NCBI GenBank assembly: GCA_964016885.1
Contig: OZ024741.1
Coordinates: 63,178,001-63,242,000, forward strand
DNA length: 64,000 nucleotides
Source: Eledone cirrhosa
Lineage: Eukaryota
Reading direction: 5' to 3'
The position numbers and the translations under genes were made by a program. Within the stretch, counting starts at the first letter, position 1; the number at the start of each line of letters is the position of its first letter. The notes under the pieces were generated by a model, which was not told the origin of the DNA, searched no databases, and saw nothing but the letters and a program-made list of their open reading frames with translations. Below, one piece after another: positions 13,122 through 63,854 of this stretch.

Positions 13122-13773
13122 TAGGATATGTGTTCCTTCACGCACAAGGCGCTAAGGTACGCATGTATTGTCCAACCAAAATGCCAGTGTGGTTCAATGG
13201 CAGGTTAATAAATTAACGAGCCAGAACAAATTTAAACAAGGTTTAGCAAATAATGAAAAAGTTTCAAAATAAATTTTAAAAAAAATTGACTTTACCTACT
13301 ATAGTTACCTTTACCGATCGGTTTCGAATCCCAAAAATAAAACGGAGACCATACGGCCTTCGTTGCAAAGAAAGATTCTCGTCAGAAGGTTCTTTTCATT
13401 CAAAGAGTATAAAATTCCTGAATTTAAATTACAGACTAGCGCTATCAAAACTGTTCCCGGGATGAGAGTGGATGATGTAGAAACAGGTTTATCAAGGGCC
13501 GAAGTAAAGATAGAGGCAGATAAACCTGTTTCTACATCATCCACTCTCATCCCGGGAACAGTTTTGATAGCGCTAGTCTGTAATTTAAATTCAGGAATGT
13601 TATATTCTTTGAATGAAAAGAACCTTCTGACGAGAATCTTTCTTTGCAACGAAGGCCGTATGGTCTCCGTTTTATTTTTGGGATTCGAAACCGATCGGTA
13701 AAGGTAACTATAGTAGGTAAAGTCAATTTTTTTTTTATTTATTTTGAAACTTTTTCATTATTTGCTAAACCTT

Positions 13774-15447: not shown

Positions 15448-15502
<55 letters not shown>

Positions 15503-15505
<3 letters not shown>

Positions 15506-15615
15506 CGAAGGTAATGTGGTAAGGAACCAGGTGAACCATAACGCACCAAAGTACTCAATACTTAGGGTAGTAGAGTGGGTAATAGGGACAAGTAAGACCC
15601 CGGGGTCTTACTTGT

Positions 15616-15621
<6 letters not shown>
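15503..15621. mobile_element. Tail + perfect 40-bp palindrome (15582-15621); family also at 41491-41673 and 52815-52910
   Basis: atagggacaagtaagacccc|ggggtcttacttgtccctat between TA tracts. Confidence 0.88.
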
Positions 15622-15686
<65 letters not shown>

Positions 15687-16318
15687 AATTAGAATTGGTG
15701 CTCTGAAATAGCGATATATATATGAATGTATATACAGTGTATTTTGCAATACACTGTATGCTTAATTAAAACCATTTCGAAGACCTTACGCTATTGTTTT
15801 AGAGTAGTGACAGTCTCACTTACTTTAAATTTTCAGCAAACAGGGGAGATAAAGCTGACAGAGCTCTGATTCGCACTTTTTGGTGCTTATCAAAGCTAAC
15901 TACTCCACCTGTTTGCTGAAAATCGTGAATGTTTGATTCTTATAGAATTCTAGTAATAATCAGGAACTGATTATTACTAGAATTCTGATTATATATATCG
16001 GTATTTCAGAGCACCGATTCTAATTTTCAATTTCTGCTTGACCGGCAACCGCTCTGTATAATTAGTTCCGGATTATTACTAGAATTCTATAAGAATCAAA
16101 CATTCCTGATTTTCAGCAAACAGGTGGAGTAGTTAGCTTTGATAAGCACCAAAAAGTGCGAAACAGAACTCTGTCAGCTTTATCTCCCCTGTTTGCTGAA
16201 AATTTAAAGTAAGTGAGACTGTCACTACTCTAAAACAATAGCGTAAGGTCTTCGAAATGGTTTTAATTAAGCATACAGTGTATTGCAAAATACACTGTAT
16301 ATACATTCATATATATAT
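15687..16318. mobile_element. Fold-back element with arms about 15715-15961 / 16071-16318 and a degenerate hammerhead (16135-16179 +)
   Basis: Inverted repeat of about 250 bp. agct TTGATAA gcac..gtgc GAAA cagaactctg TC agct. Solo relative at 37031-37330. Confidence 0.88.
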
Positions 16319-16507: not shown

Positions 16508-17040
16508 TTGAGTTTATGTTGGTTGTATACCAACACCTCAGTATGCAGGCTGGAGCACTCAACGAAGTGCGCAGGTTGGTTTGGTTACTCCGGAGTAGTG
16601 TAAAATAAAGTTAAATAAAAGTCAAATGATTAAAATTTAGCTTCGTTTATTACTGCTATATATATTTCAGTGACAGCCATCTTTGGCCGTGACCTCTTCA
16701 GGCAGTTTGAATTAGTATGGTATAGACAAGTACATATGTTGTTTAGGTGTATGATATTGTCAATACTCTGATATGCCCAGTTCCTTGTTGGGTTGTTAAT
16801 TCACTGGGGAACTGGAGTCATATCATATGACTCCAGTTCCCCAGTGAATTAACAACCCAACAAGGAACTGGGCATATCAGAGTATTGACAATATCATACA
16901 CCTAAACAACATATGTACTTGTCTATACCATACTAATTCAAACTGCCTGAAGAGGTCACGGCCAAAAATGGCTGTCACTGAAATATATATAGCAGTAATA
17001 AACGAAGCTAAATTTTAATCATTTGACTTTTATTTAACTT

Positions 17041-21744: not shown

Positions 21745-24671
21745 GAGATATAAAGAGATAAATATATATATAAAAAATAAAGATAAAGATAATAATGACA
21801 AAAATAAAAGCAAATAAGGGGCAGAAAGAAGAAAAGAAAAGATAGCCAAAAAGAGGAGGGAAGGAAGGAAGAAAACGAAGAAATAGAAGTGGAATGAAGG
21901 AGAAGAGGGGGATATAGGTATTGGCTTTTGTGGGTGATTAAAAGGGTTTAGATACAACAAGAGGGTATAAAGTCTAAGTATATGCAGTTTGTCAGTTGGT
22001 AGTAAGAGGTTAAGGGTTCGATTTGCACTTGTAGTGCGAAAACTTCTCTTTGAGTCTATGGTTACAATAAATTGATCTTTCGATTTTATTGTTGAGTAAC
22101 TTATTCTTCGAACTCAAGATGTGGAACAGCTCAAGGTCGCATAATCGACAGCTTCTCATACCACTCCGATATGGGGGCGCGTTCGATAATTGTTTCCACT
22201 TCAGAGTGTATTGATGGTTACTTTCCCTCAGTTGCCAGGTCTTGTTTCGAAGGTTAGTTACATAACGATGCTGGGAATGTTTCATTGCGTAACGGTGTGT
22301 ATACCAACGGGCTTTAAATGTATTCCCAGTCGCTCCGATGTAATACCATTTCTAGTTGTCTGATTCCACTGTGCATTGGTAAACCAGGTTAGACTGCATA
22401 CATTCATTATGTAATGGACAGGTTTCAGGTAGGTGGCAGTTACAATTCTTGTCATGGGCAACTTTGGCATTATTGGTGGGCTGCGATGCCTGCACAAGTG
22501 TGTTATGTTTTGTTTGCCTATTAGTGGGTGGTTGTGAATTAGATATTCTGTTGTGTTCAATGGTGATTGTATTGTTATTGTTGTAAATGTGTGTTCTGGT
22601 GTTGTTATGTATCTTTTTAGCGTTAAGCATCTTAATGTGTGCCTCTATATTTGGTGCCGTGGAGTAAGATAGTATAATAGATTTAGTGTTAAGGATTTTG
22701 CTGTATCTATGTGAATTTGGAAAGTGCTTATTTATTATTGTAAAGAAGGTAGAGGGTAGGCTAGCACTAATAGAGGTGTTAAATATGGGGTTATACCAAA
22801 TATATTTTCTACTGCGTGACTTGTTTGATTTCGATGTTGTATTTCTATTTACCGTATACTTTGTAGTTCTATGCATAAGTGCGTGTGTTTGGAGATTTGT
22901 GTTATGCGTGTTCGTGTGCGCTTACGGAGGCTTTCATCTATATATTCTACTCTATCTAAGTGGCCTGCCTTGTCTAATGCGGTATTGTAGTATTATGCAT
23001 GTTATTCGAAGATTTTTCGGTTAGACGAGAGTCGGGAGATCCTAAGGGATATACTGTGTGGAATGGATTTAATTATGGATAGTGGGTGGTTTGAGTTACA
23101 GTTGATGTATGCTAAGTTTTCATTTATCTTGTGAAAAAGTCTTATAAGTCCCGTATTTAGGTTAAGCGTCGCGTCTAGAAAGTTAACTGTTTTAGTGCTA
23201 TACTCATACGTTATGCTAAGGCCTAGTTTCCCGAGGGTCTTTCTAATATTCTTACGGAGTCTTTCTATGCTCTGGTTATTTAGGTTCTTAACTAGGAGAA
23301 GGGCGTCGTCTCTGTAGATTCCACCGTGAAGGTCGCTAAACTCACTTTGTTAACTGTGGGCTATGTAAATACCTACTAAATCTGTGACTTGAGCCGAGTC
23401 GTTAACCCCATCGTGATGTCAAAGTTATTTAATCTATCCTTACGTTCCCAATAGGCGTTTTCAAATTTAATTATTGTTTTCCTAGCAGCTAATACGATTT
23501 TTATCTCGTCGTCTGTTATGTCAGAATTGGCTTTGGCAAATGCTAAGGCTTTATCCAAGGTGTTGGGGAATATAGAGGAGTAATAGTCGTTAATGTCAAA
23601 TTGTATAAATTTAGATACTTCTTTGTGAGCTATATTGTTAAACCACTTAATTGTTTCGGTAGCGTTACCCCATAGTTTAATTACTAGTTTATTCTTCATT
23701 TGTGCTATCACTCTGTCTAATATATGTTTACTAATTTTCCCGATGTCCGATTTGGACGGGCATATAAGTCTAATTGTGGGGTTATAATCAAAATTTACTT
23801 TGTGGTCCTTGAGATTAAATGTGGGGGTACATGGCCGAAGATCCTCCGTTCTGTCGTCTATTCCTAGGTGTTTGACTATATTGTGTGCCTCATTGTTGAT
23901 ATTTATCAGTGCCGCCTCATTAGTTTTTTTGTATTTCCTATGTAATTCCTTCGGTATGAAGCTATTGTATGTATTAACATCCATCGTATACACATTTGAT
24001 GTTTTGTCCGCTTTGACAATAATTCCATTGGTGGTTCCCAGCTTTTTTAGGAATGTATTTATGTCATTCTGGAGTTTATTATTCCTCCGCTTTTCGAATT
24101 TGATATTCATAATCATCTTCAGTAAGTCCTGTTCAAAGGCTTCCAGTTGAGGGTTGGTAGGTGGGTTTTTACACGATTTGAAGCCGTATGTTTCCTTGTT
24201 GTATTCCACGGTGCGACCATTACGTCCTTTGTCGAAATGGAAAGTTTTCCATCTAACTGCGTATAAAGTCGTTTGTTCGCTGTATCATCCCGAGGGTATA
24301 ATCCTTTCTCAGAGGTATAGGAATGTTCTTTATGGACATACCTATGTAATGCTTTTCCATAGTAGTACCGTAGGTTTAGGTGGTTGGTCGACCGATAAGG
24401 AACATGTAGTTAGGGAAGCAAAAAATTGCTTTTTCTGATCCAGTTCGTGGTTATGAAAGCCAGTTTCATGGATGGTTTCAACTTACGGTTAGGGGTAACT
24501 CCACAAGTTTGTAAGGATTCCGATCAATCTTGGAGTATAAAGTATAAAAGAGAAAACACAGGTAAGCATTAAGTGAAGGATTTTATCCAGGTATTTACGA
24601 CCGTTTCATTGGTAAGTGCAACCTTATATTGCTATACTGCAAATAACAGCCACTCAATGATAATTGTTGTT

Positions 24672-32650: not shown

Positions 32651-33726
32651 CATAAGTTAAACGAATTGGTTGCTGAACACTCACATCTAAATCCACGGGG
32701 GAATCCATTATTAATACATAAAATATTTATATTTAATAAGTTGTGGTTGTTTCTAATTAAACAGTGGTATTTCAAAAAAATATGCTCAGCTACTGAATAA
32801 TTACTGATATTAGATATTGTACTGATATTAGATATAAGAGCTAGAATAAAACCAACCATGTTGTTTCTCGTCCCATTCTCTAGCGTAAATAGAGAGTAGA
32901 GAAATTCAGAGATGTTTAATGAAAGATTGAGTTTGTGTGCGACAGAATGTTCGATTAGTCCCATGTTCGATTCCAATAAGTGCCATATTCAGCAAATGTC
33001 ATTTACCACAGCATTATGTTGATCCATGCTTTGTGTGTGAAATTGTGGAGACGGAAACTGTTTTGGGAAACCTATCGGATGGACGATAGTACCTGTAAAT
33101 CAAAGGGTTTTCCTTATCACACTATATCTCCATGAGAATGACAGTAAAGATACATATGTTTATTTCATGAGCAAGGAACAACTGGACCACTCCCTATCAA
33201 AATCAACATACGGCCATTCTATGTGTGAGATAATGATATGAGCCTAGAAGAATTTTAATTTGGTTAACACGAACACCTCTGAGATATGCTTGAATAGTTA
33301 TATCTTTATTCGGTGAATTAACCGTGGAAGTAATATTTAATTTTTCCAACTTGAAACCCAATTCAAATCAAAAATTCGATTTCCAAGTTTTTTTTCTGCA
33401 ATAATTCACGTTGTGGATAGAAAATAAAGAAATAAAAAAATAATAGAACACATTGTTACAACTTAGTTCAAAATAAATAAATATATAACTGATTTCTAAA
33501 GAACTAAATTCATTTCATATAATTTAATAGTATTCAACTGATCAAATTATAATTCAATTGACCTATTAAGGATAATATGTGATTAGTAGTTTTTTAATCA
33601 TAAAATAGATAATTATAATAATTACTCTATTTATTTTCCTATTATATGTTACAGTACATCTACAAGTCAGTAAGTGATCGTAAAGAGCGAAGTATTTGCA
33701 CGCCTTTCTCATAAATCATATATATA

Positions 33727-35072
33727 TATTAAAATAACAGATTAAAGTTTAAGCAAAGAATCGCTGCTTTCACCCTTAACGGGATCTTCTGAAACTAACA
33801 AAGTCAATCTGTAAACGCAGAACTGGATATTTCAAAAAACGTTGCAACCGGAGGAAGACAGGAAGACGATACTTTGGTTCGTGGTAACGTTCGCTGGCAA
33901 AGAACGGGAAAAAACGAATAATACGTCATTAATAGGAGCGGTGAAAAACAATTACGCGCAAAGACAAAACCACGTTTATGGTATAAAAGAGGTCGTAGAC
34001 TAATGTTCTCTTAGGTGGTGCATAGAGACGTTCTCTGGCAATGAACGAAAAAACGAAGATAATAAGTCATATGTGGAGCGTGGAGAACAATAGCACGCAA
34101 AGACAAAACCACGTACGTATATTTGACTGTTATAGCGTATAATTTTTACATATTTTGGTATTTAGGGTTTGGATATGTGTATACGGGAGTTTTGCGTCCG
34201 CGTGAGTGTGCAGGCTCGTACGTATGGTGGGTGTGTGTATATGTGTACTTCTTGTTTTAGTTGACTTACGTCTCCGAACATTCGTGTATTTATATGTAGG
34301 TATGCGTGTGCGCTTGTTATATACGTATTTATTTACTTATATACGTTTATATAATTATTTGTTTATTTGTACACAAGCATACACACACACACATATTTAT
34401 ATGTGCGTGGTTTTGTATACCCATGGTAAGGTTTTGCGTATGCTTGTGTATGTACGTATCTGTTCGCGTGTATGTATTTATTTGTTTCTATTACTTCTGG
34501 ATTGTATTTATTTACTTTGTTCTTAACTCTGTAGCGGAGATTCATTTGGTCTCCTAGTTAGAATTTTAGTCTACGACTTCCGCTATACCATTTACGTGGT
34601 TTTGTCCTTGCATGCTATCGTTCTCCACGCTCCACATATGACTTATTATCTTCGTTTTTTCGTTCATTGCCAGAGAACGTATCTATGCACCACCTAAGAG
34701 AACATTAGTCTACGACCTCTTTTATACCATAAACGTGGTTTTGTCTTTGCGCGTAATTGTTTTTCACCGCTCCTATTAATGACGTATTATTCGTTTTTTC
34801 CCGTTCTTTGCCAGCGAACGTTACCACGAACCAAAGTATCGTCTTCCTGTCTTCCTCCGGTTGCAACGTTTTTTGAAATATCCAGTTCTGCGTTTACAGA
34901 TTGACTTTGTTAGTTTCAGAAGATCCCGTTAAGGGTGAAAGCAGCGATTCTTTGTTTAAACTTTAATCTGTTATTTTAATAAATATTTGCTCTACGGTTC
35001 TTATATATTTGATATATATTTTCCTTATCGAGCCCTCTTTGGATTTTAGTCTTCAATGTTATTCTTATTACT
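33727..35072. mobile_element. Large fold-back element: arms 33727-34115 / 34593-34981, 477-bp spacer, tail to about 35072
   Basis: 389-bp near-identical inverted arms with an internal subrepeat of about 140 bp. Variant hammerheads at 33746-33796 (-) and 34912-34962 (+). Confidence 0.92.
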
Positions 35073-36719: not shown

Positions 36720-36998
36720 ACATGTTAGGTATTTCCGAAGAAAAAGCAAAGGAAAAAAGAGTGCGCTATATATAGAACAGAGCTTTTTAATTAGTAAGTG
36801 AACAACACAATATATAACTACTCCATTACCAAAGGTTTCTGGATCCTAGACAATATTAATATACGTCTAGTTCGTTCTATCAGACAGAGATGTTATAACG
36901 TCTAATGAACGATATAGACGTATATTGATATTGTCTAGGGTCCTGAAACCTTTGGTAATGGAGTAGTTATATATTGTGTTGTTCACTTTCTAACTAAA
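36720..36998. mobile_element. Tail + fold-back (36796-36869 / 36915-36988) with a degenerate hammerhead
   Basis: Right arm reads CTAATGA...GAAA cctttgg TA atgg. Confidence 0.75.
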
Positions 36999-41490: not shown

Positions 41491-41673
41491 TAACGAAGGA
41501 AATGTGGTAAGGAACCAAGTGGACCATAACGCACCAAAGTACTCAATACTTAGGGTAGTAGAGTGGGTAATAGGAACAAGTAAGACCCCGACGGCTGAGC
41601 TCAAGCCGTTTCGACGGCTAATTAGCCGTCGAAACGGCTTGAGCTCAGCCGTCGGGGTCTTACTTGTTCCTAT
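41491..41673. mobile_element. Tail + perfect 104-bp palindrome (41570-41673) carrying the 3' half of a hammerhead
   Basis: GAAA cggct-tgagctc-agccg TC ggggtc in both arms; same tail as 15503. Confidence 0.88.
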
Positions 41674-49900: not shown

Positions 49901-50125
49901 ATGCTTTGGGAGGGTCATGTTGCCAATAAGAAACTCACGCACCAGTTGCTTTCACTCCAATTTATTATAATTTAAATTCATAAATTTAATTTATAATAAA
50001 TTGGAGTGAAAGCAACTGGTGCGTGAGTTTCTTATTGGCAACATGACCCTCCCAAAACATAACAATATCGGTTTCAACACACGTTTTCAGATAAAGAATC
50101 TTGCTAAACAAATTCAGAAACGAAA
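49893..50125. repeat. Fold-back (49893-49970 / 49991-50068) with a one-sided extension, between TA tracts
   Basis: atattgttatgctttgggagggtcatg... / ...catgaccctcccaaaacataacaatat. Confidence 0.88.
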
Positions 50126-52603: not shown

Positions 52604-52905
52604 CAGGCTTCTGCTCAGTAGTCCCATCCTACCAAATATGACTCAGTCAATGAAAGAATAATTTTGCCTACTCTGGGCAGTGGGATTGATAGCAGAATCA
52701 CTTGTTCGCTCCAAACTTAGTAGCGATGCAGTCGTACCGACTGGCAGTTACCCACTTCCTCTCGCCCAAAATGGAAACTCCTACCTACGATATATACACA
52801 CACACATATATATATAACGAAGGAATTGTGGTAACGAACCAGATGGACCAGTCCAGAAATAGCCGTCGAAACGGCTTGTGCTCTGCCGTCGGGGTCATAT
52901 ATTTT

Positions 52906-52939
<34 letters not shown>

Positions 52940-58023: not shown

Positions 58024-58417
58024 TTCTATTTAAATTGTTGAGATACAACAAGCAAATATTTTTATAACTGATATAAAGCACTCAACACATTATTGGAGTA
58101 AAAATACGATATATTAACAAATGGAAACTATATTTATAAAACCATATTTATTTCATTATACATATTTCAAGGACACCAAGTTAAATTATGGTGTGCTTTC
58201 ATCAGATAAAATATAGAGCAGTTTTATAAATATCCGGGAGCTTCCAACAGAAATGGTCGCATTCTTTAAGGGTATGTCAATATTTATTTATAAAACTGCT
58301 CTATATTATATTTTATCTGATGAAAGCACACCATAATTTAACTTGATGTCCTTGAAATATGTATAATGAAATAAATAAGGTTTTATAAATATAGTTTTCA
58401 TTTGTTAATATATCGTA
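58021..58417. mobile_element. Tail + fold-back (58105-58232 / 58286-58417) with hammerheads at 58149-58213 (-) and 58309-58373 (+)
   Basis: tattttat CTGATGA aagcacacca...tgatgtcctt GAAA tatgta TA atgaaata. Confidence 0.9.
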
Positions 58418-58442
58418 TATATATATATATATATATATATAT

Positions 58443-59029
<587 letters not shown>

Positions 59030-59173: not shown

Positions 59174-59645
59174 TAAACAAATAATGAATAAACAATTCCT
59201 TATATTAAACAAAAAAAGTTCATTATTTAACGATCGTTTCTAGGATATATATGTGTTAGAATTGGTATGCATATTTAACAGATCTATGTACAAAATTATA
59301 CAAAATTATACAAATTATCAAGATTAAATATACATACCAACACATATATACGCCGTCTTGATAATTTGTATAATTTTGTATAATTTTGTACATAGATCTG
59401 TTAAATATGCATACCAATTCTAACACATATATATCCTAGAAACGATCGTTAAATAATGAACTTTTTTTGTTTAATATAAGGAATTGTTTATTCATTATTT
59501 GTTTAATATTTTATCTTGACTCTGTATACCGTTTATCTTTCACCGAAAGTGATTTTTCATTACATCTCTTCTTTCCATGATATCCGGAATACATTGAGTT
59601 CTTCATACGGATTGGACACTACCGTAAACTCTTGGTAGATTTATC

Positions 59646-62474: not shown

Positions 62475-63854
62475 GGAGGTGAGTTTTATTGTAGTACAAT
62501 AAAGCAATGCAGATATCGGATAAGAAGCACTCTACAGTTTGTAGGACTGGAGTATACATAATATAAGATCAAAAGATGGTTAAAGGAGTCCCATGTATTT
62601 TATTATGCGCATTTCAAAAACAAACATCATCATGCAATAATATTTGTGTTTTCATCAGATAAAACAGGAGAACATGATATGAAGGCTAAAAAACACTTGT
62701 GGATAGTGCAGTTTTAAATCAACATATGAAAAGTGGTTTTAGATTGATGTGTGATATTGGGAAAAAATATTTTATTTAGAGAGGGGGGGTGGAAAGGATG
62801 AAAAGGGGGAGGAGATGAGAGGGAGAGATGGGTGATAGAGAGAAAGAGATAGTTTTTATAACTGAGAAAAAGATATATTGTTTTACATAGAGAGGTTGAG
62901 AACCGTTGGAAGATAATGTATAAATTAAAGGAATTTGAAAATTAACGAAGGGAATTTATGTATGAAGATAGAGAGAAAAAATAATAATTGTGGATGAATA
63001 TTCTAACGTCAAAAAAAGTGTATGTTGATAAGTATTGTGGCAATTTCAAAATTAACGAAGAGAAAAATTATTACGGTTTGTGTGTAGAAGGATTTGAGAA
63101 AAATAATGTGAAGTTAAAGTTTGTATATTGAAGGAATTGATAATATATGCGAATAAAGAGTTAATATGTATTAAGAATGAGTTCGTTGATGGGGAGAAAA
63201 AAATAATAAATTAAGGATGAAATTGAGATTAAAACGATTTATGATAGAGAGAAAAAATAATAATGATTGCGGATGAATATTCTAACGTCAAAAAAACAAA
63301 TGTATATGTTATGAAGGATTTTACAAGGTGAAGATAGAATGAGGGTAATGAGTAAACAAGTATTATAGAGTGTATAATTTCTCTCTATCACCCATCTCTC
63401 CCTCTCCACCTTCACTCTCATCTCCTCCCCCTTTTTTCATCCCCCCCCCCTCCCTAAATAAAATATTTTTTCCTCGTTGATTTTCAAATTCTTTTAATTC
63501 ATACATTATCTTCCAACTGTTTTCAACCTCTCTATGTAAAACAATATATCTCCTCTCAGTTATAAAAACTATCTCTTTCTCTCTATCACCCATCTCTCCC
63601 TCTCATCTCCTCCCCTTTTTCATCCTCCCCCCACCCCCTCTCTAAATAAAATATTTTCCCCAATATCACACATCAATCTAAAACCACTTTTCATATGTTG
63701 ATTTAAAACTGCACTATCCACAAGTGTTTTTTAGCCTTCATATCATGTTCTCCTGTTTTATCTGATGAAAACACAAATATTATTGCATGATGATGTTTGT
63801 TTTTGAAATTCGCATAATAAAATACATGGAACTCCTTTAACCATCTTTTGATCT

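Follow-up and report, generated by a model that had tools for sequence, protein, structure and literature searches.

A likely hammerhead cut at the palindrome centre of a short Penelope-like insertion in Eledone cirrhosa

The locus at positions 15503 to 15621 of the Eledone cirrhosa DNA analysed here (64,000 nucleotides of contig OZ024741.1, referred to as the window) is a short head-to-head insertion of the pseudo-long terminal repeat (pLTR) of a Hydra-clade Penelope-like element (PLE) into a (TA)n microsatellite, and its palindrome centre likely shows where the 5' end of a template RNA lay after the element's own hammerhead, whose core carries a U3-A8 pair, had cut it. In our judgement, self-cleavage of this hammerhead in vivo is the probable source of the templates that gave rise to a whole class of genomic copies resembling this one. 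The single junction at 15503 cannot carry this claim alone, since the predicted cut sits within a CG and the centre is ambiguous by 1 nt, being readable either as two ends exactly at the cut (0/0, blunt) or as two ends one position upstream (-1/-1) with a 2-nt overlap.

In the numbering used here, +1 is the A of AGTCC, the predicted cut lies between +41 and +42 (marked by a slash in the motifs below), and the ends of the short arm and of the tail are at +61 and about +141, respectively. The features of the locus and of two longer family copies in the window, with RT standing for reverse transcriptase or reverse transcription, are as follows.

15479..15504, no strand: left (TA)n target microsatellite, read from the sequence
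15503..15601, minus strand: long arm, running in pLTR sense between the predicted cut (+42, GGGG) and the distal RT start or tail end (about +141)
15503..15581, minus strand: 80-nt unique tail between two inferred RT start sites, on one side only
15582..15601, minus strand: left half of the palindrome, with an A>G variant (ggGacaag) common to both halves
15601..15602, no strand: palindrome centre, at the predicted hammerhead cut after C17; blunt, with a 1-nt ambiguity (CG)
15602..15621, plus strand: short arm, running in pLTR sense between the predicted cut (+42) and the proximal RT start (cctat, +61)
15620..15673, no strand: right (TA)n target microsatellite, read from the sequence
41491..41673, no strand: family copy centred at AATT (between 41621 and 41622, about +8), with a perfect palindrome at 41570-41673 and 52-nt arms
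52815..52910, plus strand: family copy, sense arm from the main end AGTCC (52850 = +1), GAAA at 52868, cut between 52890 and 52891

The palindrome at 15582-15621 is perfect, with 20-nt arms meeting between 15601 and 15602 in the reading ...taagacccc/ggggtctta..., and both arms start at ggggtc, in agreement with the original prediction that the centre would coincide with the ribozyme cut (GUC/GGGG). The hammerhead 3' half that had been noticed in the longer copies is likewise present: in 41570-41673, each arm contains it (GAAA at 41631, cut between 41653 and 41654) in the form GAAA-cggct-tgagctc-agccg-TC/GGGGTC, and 52850-52910 has the same motif with tgccg replacing agccg, so that both copies show GAAA, a 4-5 bp stem and GTC/GGGGTC. 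A 5' half of any type is missing for this family from the 64-kb window, as had been stated for CUGANGA. The one-sided 80-nt tail is identical in arrangement in all 15 of the loci displayed, the 15503 copy among them.

All genome-wide counts given here come from pattern searches of the 3.0-Gb genome, and the sampled loci are the first matches listed, from contigs C1-C3. The exact 22-mer at the centre of the 15503 copy occurs at 93 loci (reversed control pattern 0), and the family pattern, tail...cctat(TA)n, has 23,019 matches (reversed control 0), 2,275 of them short. In the first 100 short copies listed, 67 of the ends that lie no more than 12 nt from the cut are unambiguous, and 24 of these fall exactly on it (p=5e-17 against a flat null), as compared with 1, 3 and 0 ends at -1, -2 and -3 and a total of 13 from -12 to -1. 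Both ends lie at 0 or -1 in 14 of these copies, which corresponds to about 320 copies, or 1.4% of the family. When a pattern for three subfamilies required each arm to extend as far as GGGG and allowed no more than 14 nt in the middle, 307 matches were obtained; the first 100 listed represent 98 loci, 97 of which, with 62 tail haplotypes, form our sample of loci with both arms near the cut. Both ends lie exactly at the cut, with untemplated bases in between, in 45 of these loci, while a blunt junction of the 15503 type is found in 28, just one end lies at the cut in 3, and 21 reach upstream. CpG decay could account for 3 of the 45 (those with an AAT insert), but not for the 21 single A or T inserts, since the undecayed form occurs just twice. 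The predicted accumulation of ends at GTC/GGGG does exist genome-wide, and it is nucleotide-sharp, common to both arms and devoid of a cap signature. An apparent spike at -20 and at other hairpin positions was disregarded as an artefact of the self-complementarity of stem III. Six family copies sharing their flanks on C18 and C28 (L018-L023) represent a segmental duplication and not independent insertions.

The two arms are moreover coupled. Among 226 matches whose partner arm extends fully to +1, a cut end was found in 3 of 30 sampled loci (p=2e-4 against the 45 of 97 above), and at most 9 of 100 matches listed end at the cut; independent arm ends would predict about 1,100-1,700 mixed loci as against some 20 seen, a rough comparison in which the patterns differ. 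Since cut ends come in pairs, the template RNA itself therefore appears to have begun at the cut.

The main class of centres lies elsewhere, 41 nt upstream of the cut and inside loop II of the hammerhead described below. In 97 of the first 100 family matches listed, the arms reach no further than 47 nt upstream of the cut, in 57 of them at least one arm ends 38-47 nt upstream, around +1, and both arms are complete to +1 at 2,991 loci genome-wide. The bases added at the two positions differ. A C follows the +1 arm end in 15 of 50 loci listed, in 4 of 30 ends of 15 sampled loci and at 1,183 arm ends genome-wide (about a fifth), and the genomic base is a G in 0 of 33 references; an extra G of this kind has been read as a cap signature for L1 (PMC11702581). 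Single inserts are C or G in 6 cases and A or T in 1 at +1 (among the 50 loci listed), whereas at the cut the figures are 2 and 21 (p=3e-4 for the contrast), and the first base of longer cut inserts is C in 9 of 48. In this respect, +1 resembles a capped start and +42 an uncapped end. On this pattern of added bases, +1, which lies inside loop II (AGTCC), is likely the transcription start, a candidate one for Pol II, and a further cluster of ends, at -3/-4, may reflect a start close by. TTAGT or TCAGT is conserved in the start region. An intron acceptor at TTTAG was also considered, and the arms include the AG plus the extra G. A candidate TATA box (TATTTA at -31) is found in one subfamily only and lost in the divergent one, and it is not claimed. 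Contigs from four sequencing runs show a roughly tenfold step in depth near +1, and a few contigs come from two other organisms; neither observation is used as evidence here.

Of 76 copies that could be scored, 58 have the same 9-11 nt variable loop in both arms, against 13.6 expected under random pairing, so that the arms usually, although not always, come from one source, which fits two cDNAs better than a fold-back. In three copies (L120, L121 and L163), the arms carry the loops of different subfamilies, suggesting two different RNAs per insertion. In three others (L057, L139 and L151), arms ending at +1 are separated by runs of A or T as long as about 17 nt, which suggests that the RT strongly adds untemplated A.

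The full pLTR contains both halves of the ribozyme, in the order ACCCC-YUGANAA-G..CGGCUA-long loop-UAGCCG.UC-GAAA-CGGC..GCCG-UC/GGGGU, with 5,722 matches genome-wide (0 and 1 in the controls) and a further 152 full-pLTR matches from a divergent subfamily. Among 30+30 loci, U occupies position 3 in 55 of 60 and A occupies position 8 in 56 of 60, position 7 is variable, and stems I-III pair in most loci; in 48 distinct full pLTRs, the 3-8 pair is U3-A8 in 42, C3.A8 in 5 and U3.G8 in 1. The core therefore departs from the canonical CUGANGA and has its Watson-Crick 3-8 pair through the U-A variant, and the overall arrangement is that of a type I hammerhead, with three helices around the core, G10.1-C11.1, A15.1-U16.1 and NUH, for which a cut after C17 is predicted. 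Pairing was found in 88% of 839 cells, as compared with 22-49% for slid partners (40 of the 60 sequences). The two subfamilies differ on both sides of three stem II pairs; their loop II sequences have nothing in common and yet are of equal length (about 35-40 nt). The minimum-energy fold is the exact three-way junction in 2 of 5 pLTRs.

Cores with U3-A8 are natural and have previously been found to be active (Perreault et al. 2011, PMC3088659), and they occur in the PLEs of Schistosoma (Cervera and de la Pena 2014, PMC4209133). Such hammerheads share with ours the covariation in the core, a long helix II with unpaired basal bases and the location in the pLTR; different from them, stem III is complete and loop II is very long in our family, and with a complete stem III folding as a monomer is predicted. 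The expectation that a CUGANGA half would be found upstream was not borne out: the pattern CTGANGAGTCCAGAAWTAG, with CUGANGA directly upstream of AGTCC, has 11 matches, none of them a natural 5' half (10 are junction or truncation by-products of short copies and 1 stands beside an ORF, or open reading frame, fragment), and this candidate was rejected. Full-length copies lacking CUGANGA had been named as a finding that would speak against the hammerhead; literally, such copies are what we observed, but their YUGANAA is a documented active variant. One copy (L209) has a G3.A8 core, and the first 100 full-pLTR matches listed include 21 with C3.A8 and 2 with G3, which, judged by their cores, are likely weakened ribozymes in subfamilies still spreading. 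The C3.A8 subfamily (5 of 9 pLTRs) offers a natural mutant test: it accounts for 13 of 73 cut-class loci as against 20 of 59 comparable unbiased copies (p=0.043), a result that weakly supports a cut made by the ribozyme.

It is possible to propose a mechanism that accommodates both classes of centres. The nuclease of the element would open the (TA)n, and both DNA ends would prime reverse transcription at the internal sites +61 and about +141, which would explain the one-sided 80-nt tail; both cDNAs would extend to the 5' terminus of the RNA, gain a few untemplated bases and be joined head to head. Most RNAs would start capped at +1, giving the main class, and since this start lies inside loop II they would carry only half a ribozyme at their 5' end, while a read-through RNA would hold a whole ribozyme in the downstream pLTR. 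Its cut would leave an uncapped 3' piece with both RT start sites, the template of the 15503 class, and uncut read-through RNA would yield the long copies, namely, the 5,722 arms crossing the whole ribozyme. As uncut copies greatly outnumber the cut class, cutting would be inefficient or its product seldom used; likely, cutting removes templates from productive transposition and is not required for it. The downstream ribozyme may act in cis, or its 5' half may cut the leader in trans.

Several observations weigh against self-cleavage as the source of the cut class. This class amounts to only about 1-1.5% of the copies, and the 15503 junction is of the ambiguous blunt type. Three of the five pLTR folds are not the exact junction, the folding energy is unexceptional (z -1.77 and -0.23), and neither the window nor any of three full pLTR loci contains a hammerhead recognised by Rfam, whose matches are sub-threshold microRNA-type hairpins only. 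Stems I and III are almost without compensatory change, the covariation of stem II is essentially one event between two subfamilies, the doubly changed pairs number 4, a value equalled or exceeded in 236 of 500 shuffles, and G5, A6, A9 and GAAAC were fixed by the search patterns. Furthermore, the depletion of the C3.A8 subfamily is absent within the same search (13 of 73 against 6 of 24, p=0.55), and for Anolis Poseidon no RNA reads were reported to end at the cut, with uncut RNA as the dominant substrate (PMC11167929).

Other origins of the sharp end have to be weighed as well. The template could have ended at +42 through a protein, that is, through an endonuclease or a 5'-3' exonuclease that the G run, stem I or a bound protein of the element brought to a halt, an account that we consider unlikely even though it predicts the same coupling of the arms and the same missing cap base, and even though the RT starts lie just downstream, where a bound protein could shield the region. 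Such a protein would have to halt at the exact hammerhead bond, next to which the three upstream positions hold 1, 3 and 0 ends against 24, and it gives no account of a catalytic core kept in two subfamilies with unrelated loop II sequences. Trimming after insertion, in which palindrome cruciforms lose their middle symmetrically and end-joining adds 1-2 bases, would also yield symmetric, coupled ends in a family that consists of perfect palindromes; we regard it as very unlikely, given that no DNA-level stop singles out +42 (13 ends in total from -12 to -1 against 24 at 0) and that many copies of the family keep their long palindromes intact.

With respect to the 15503 locus only, a chance join or a fold-back through the CG overlap, with both arms ending at -1, finds some footing in the equal readability of the junction as -1/-1, in the frequency of overlap junctions in the family (e.g., AATT at 41621) and in the fold-back self-priming proposed for PLE palindromes (PMC3846280), and yet it is hard to credit: the neighbouring CG upstream, which serves as a microhomology control, is the centre of 1 palindrome as compared with 28 at the cut, and the 45 sister loci with untemplated bases have no overlap at all, so that at the level of the family this explanation is largely refuted. 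By the initiator rule, transcription tends to start at a pyrimidine-purine step, and C/G is one, so that a minor capped start at +42 could be imagined. So could a stall of the RT on RNA from the main start, either at stem III, a hairpin lying 2 nt upstream of the cut, or once the G run has been copied. Both variants appear highly improbable to us, since a stall would be expected with a complete partner arm too, where cut ends were found in 3 of 30 loci only, and a capped start should add a C, which the single inserts (2 of 23) and the first bases of longer inserts (9 of 48) seldom show. Self-cleavage by the U3-A8 hammerhead is thus the explanation that we retain. The original prediction had described the locus as a genomic fossil of a self-cleaved template, and the spike in the family supports this view, but the class is a minor one, the locus is insufficient by itself and the cleavage is inferred.

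The parent of the family is a C-terminal endonuclease-bearing (EN+) PLE of the Hydra clade, as assigned by its motifs. In one copy (L111), the tail continues into an ORF. The ORFs are broken in the ten 6-kb stretches around ORF starts, eight of which were mapped; four of these (L288, L291, L292 and L293) present the order pLTR, ATG, RWR, DKT, YRDD, CxCX5C, YIG, CxxC-E and second pLTR, the latter 3.0-3.2 kb on, with single motifs absent in some copies. The ATG lies at about +232, i.e., 190 nt beyond the cut. A single ORF with RT followed by GIY-YIG between direct pLTRs, an inverted 5'-truncated copy and a one-sided tail are features of EN+ PLEs. The element also shares with the Hydra clade, whose defining motifs and (TA)n targets were given by Craig et al. 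(2021, PMC8557442), DKT, RWR in place of RWK, the CxCX5C linker, the lack of CCHH, a CxxC before the conserved E, no cysteine pair between GIY and YIG, a hammerhead near the 3' end and (TA)n targeting, observed in the window copies and in the sampled family loci. A first reading as the Neptune clade was dropped, the linker being CxCX5C and not CX2-5CxxC, with no CCHH and a single cysteine between GIY and YIG. Different from the Hydra clade, the core is UUGANAA, while the Hydra hammerheads examined in File S2 of that paper all start with CUGA, loop II is about 35-40 nt long and contains the inferred start site, stem III has 4-5 bp with a 7-9 nt loop, the unit is about 3.1 kb and the tail has 80 nt, as compared with the 30-40 reported (PMC8557442); the motifs of the Eledone family were not found in searches of the supplement of the same paper. 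The Atlas placed the protein with scores of 0.95-0.97, in clusters with RVT_1 (48%) and GIY-YIG (47%), and it has 23 longer homologues, the single named one being an uncharacterised protein; a Pfam search, made with broken ORFs, gave no match, and a PDB sequence search gave nothing useful. The family does not have the head-to-tail units, each with a full hammerhead, of non-LTR (long terminal repeat) retrozymes: retrozymes are tandem (10.64898/2026.07.22.740005), whereas the short copies here are head-to-head and carry the 3' half or none. Directly behind the first ORF of one locus, a second, more distant Hydra-like ORF (DKT, CxCX5C) lies at L294:3386-5230 (minus-strand numbering), and 22130-23615 of the window, on the minus strand, holds what is left of a related PLE ORF, which is broken and shows 33-43% identity to the L286 protein.

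Further features of the window belong to other sequences. Paired CUGANGA hammerhead-like motifs, on opposite strands and facing away from each other, with a stem I of 5-8 bp, occur at 13385-13627, 16701-16947, 58205-58317, 58631-58758 and 62658-63762 and probably represent pLTRs, in inverted orientation, that belong to other PLE families; one of these sites contains a palindrome centred at 16823, the arms of which are 142 nt long. Single CUGANGA...GAAA motifs with a possible stem I, some of which may be due to chance, are located at 2852, 3229, 29984, 37164, 45812, 51462 and 53101. An inverted repeat at 33722-34986 has 394-nt arms, 98% complementary and 477 nt apart, and near-perfect hairpins lie at 36794-36992, 49925-50036, 59278-59401 and 15943-15985, the first three with sub-threshold microRNA matches in Rfam.

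Among known systems, Anolis Poseidon (PAc) was reported to use two internal RT starts in vitro, with both strands extended (Frangieh et al. 2024, PMC11167929). Similarly, two RT starts would bracket the tail here, both strands would be cut and extended at AT-rich DNA, and uncut RNA would be the main substrate; unlike in our family, where a genomic class ends at the cut, no such RNA ends were reported for Poseidon, and its hammerhead overlaps the ORF start, which here lies well beyond the cut. As with the HDV (hepatitis delta virus)-like ribozyme of R2 (Eickbush et al. 2013, PMC3774820), genomic 5' junctions would record the cut and carry untemplated bases, but R2 needs its cut to leave an rRNA co-transcript, whereas the cut class here would arise as a minor by-product; in our family, a hammerhead takes the place of the HDV-like ribozyme, and the cut would be recorded in the centre of a palindrome. 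L1 twin priming (PMC11702581) likewise makes a pair of cDNAs, one at either end of a single break, with an extra G read as the cap; the L1 pieces are adjacent and non-overlapping, whereas here both cDNAs would copy the same stretch and produce a palindrome. PLE palindromes and pLTR promoters were already known (PMC3846280), PLE hammerheads are reported to cut poorly in vitro (PMC4209133), and the role of the hammerhead in EN+ PLEs has been described as still unclear (PMC8557442). A literature search, in which subscription papers were sparse and Repbase and the supplements of PMC4209133 and PMC11167929 lay outside, returned no use of PLE inversion centres as a hammerhead record and no start site in loop II. 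On the whole, a known kind of element carries a known ribozyme variant, with unusually clean genomic evidence of cutting in vivo.

The promoter likely splits the ribozyme, as the position of +1 suggests. We consider it an evenly balanced question whether the element splits its hammerhead with the promoter in such a way that the 5' end of new transcripts bears half a ribozyme, which is harmless, and the complete one is confined to their 3' end, with the palindromes mapping capped and self-cleaved 5' ends and documenting for the first time that a PLE hammerhead cuts in vivo. Cutting at the 3' end would then cap read-through and destroy templates; alternatively, pairing of the two ends might remove the cap or free a unit-length monomer. 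The sharp, cap-free class of ends found genome-wide at the predicted bond is evidence of germ-line cutting by one PLE hammerhead, and its rarity suggests that cutting is not the productive route. The same read-out, in which a palindrome centre is taken as the 5' end of an RNA and an extra G as its cap, could be applied to any high-copy PLE family from an assembly, and, with regard to the origin of PLE palindromes, it supports priming on the sense RNA by both ends of the DNA rather than antisense self-priming.
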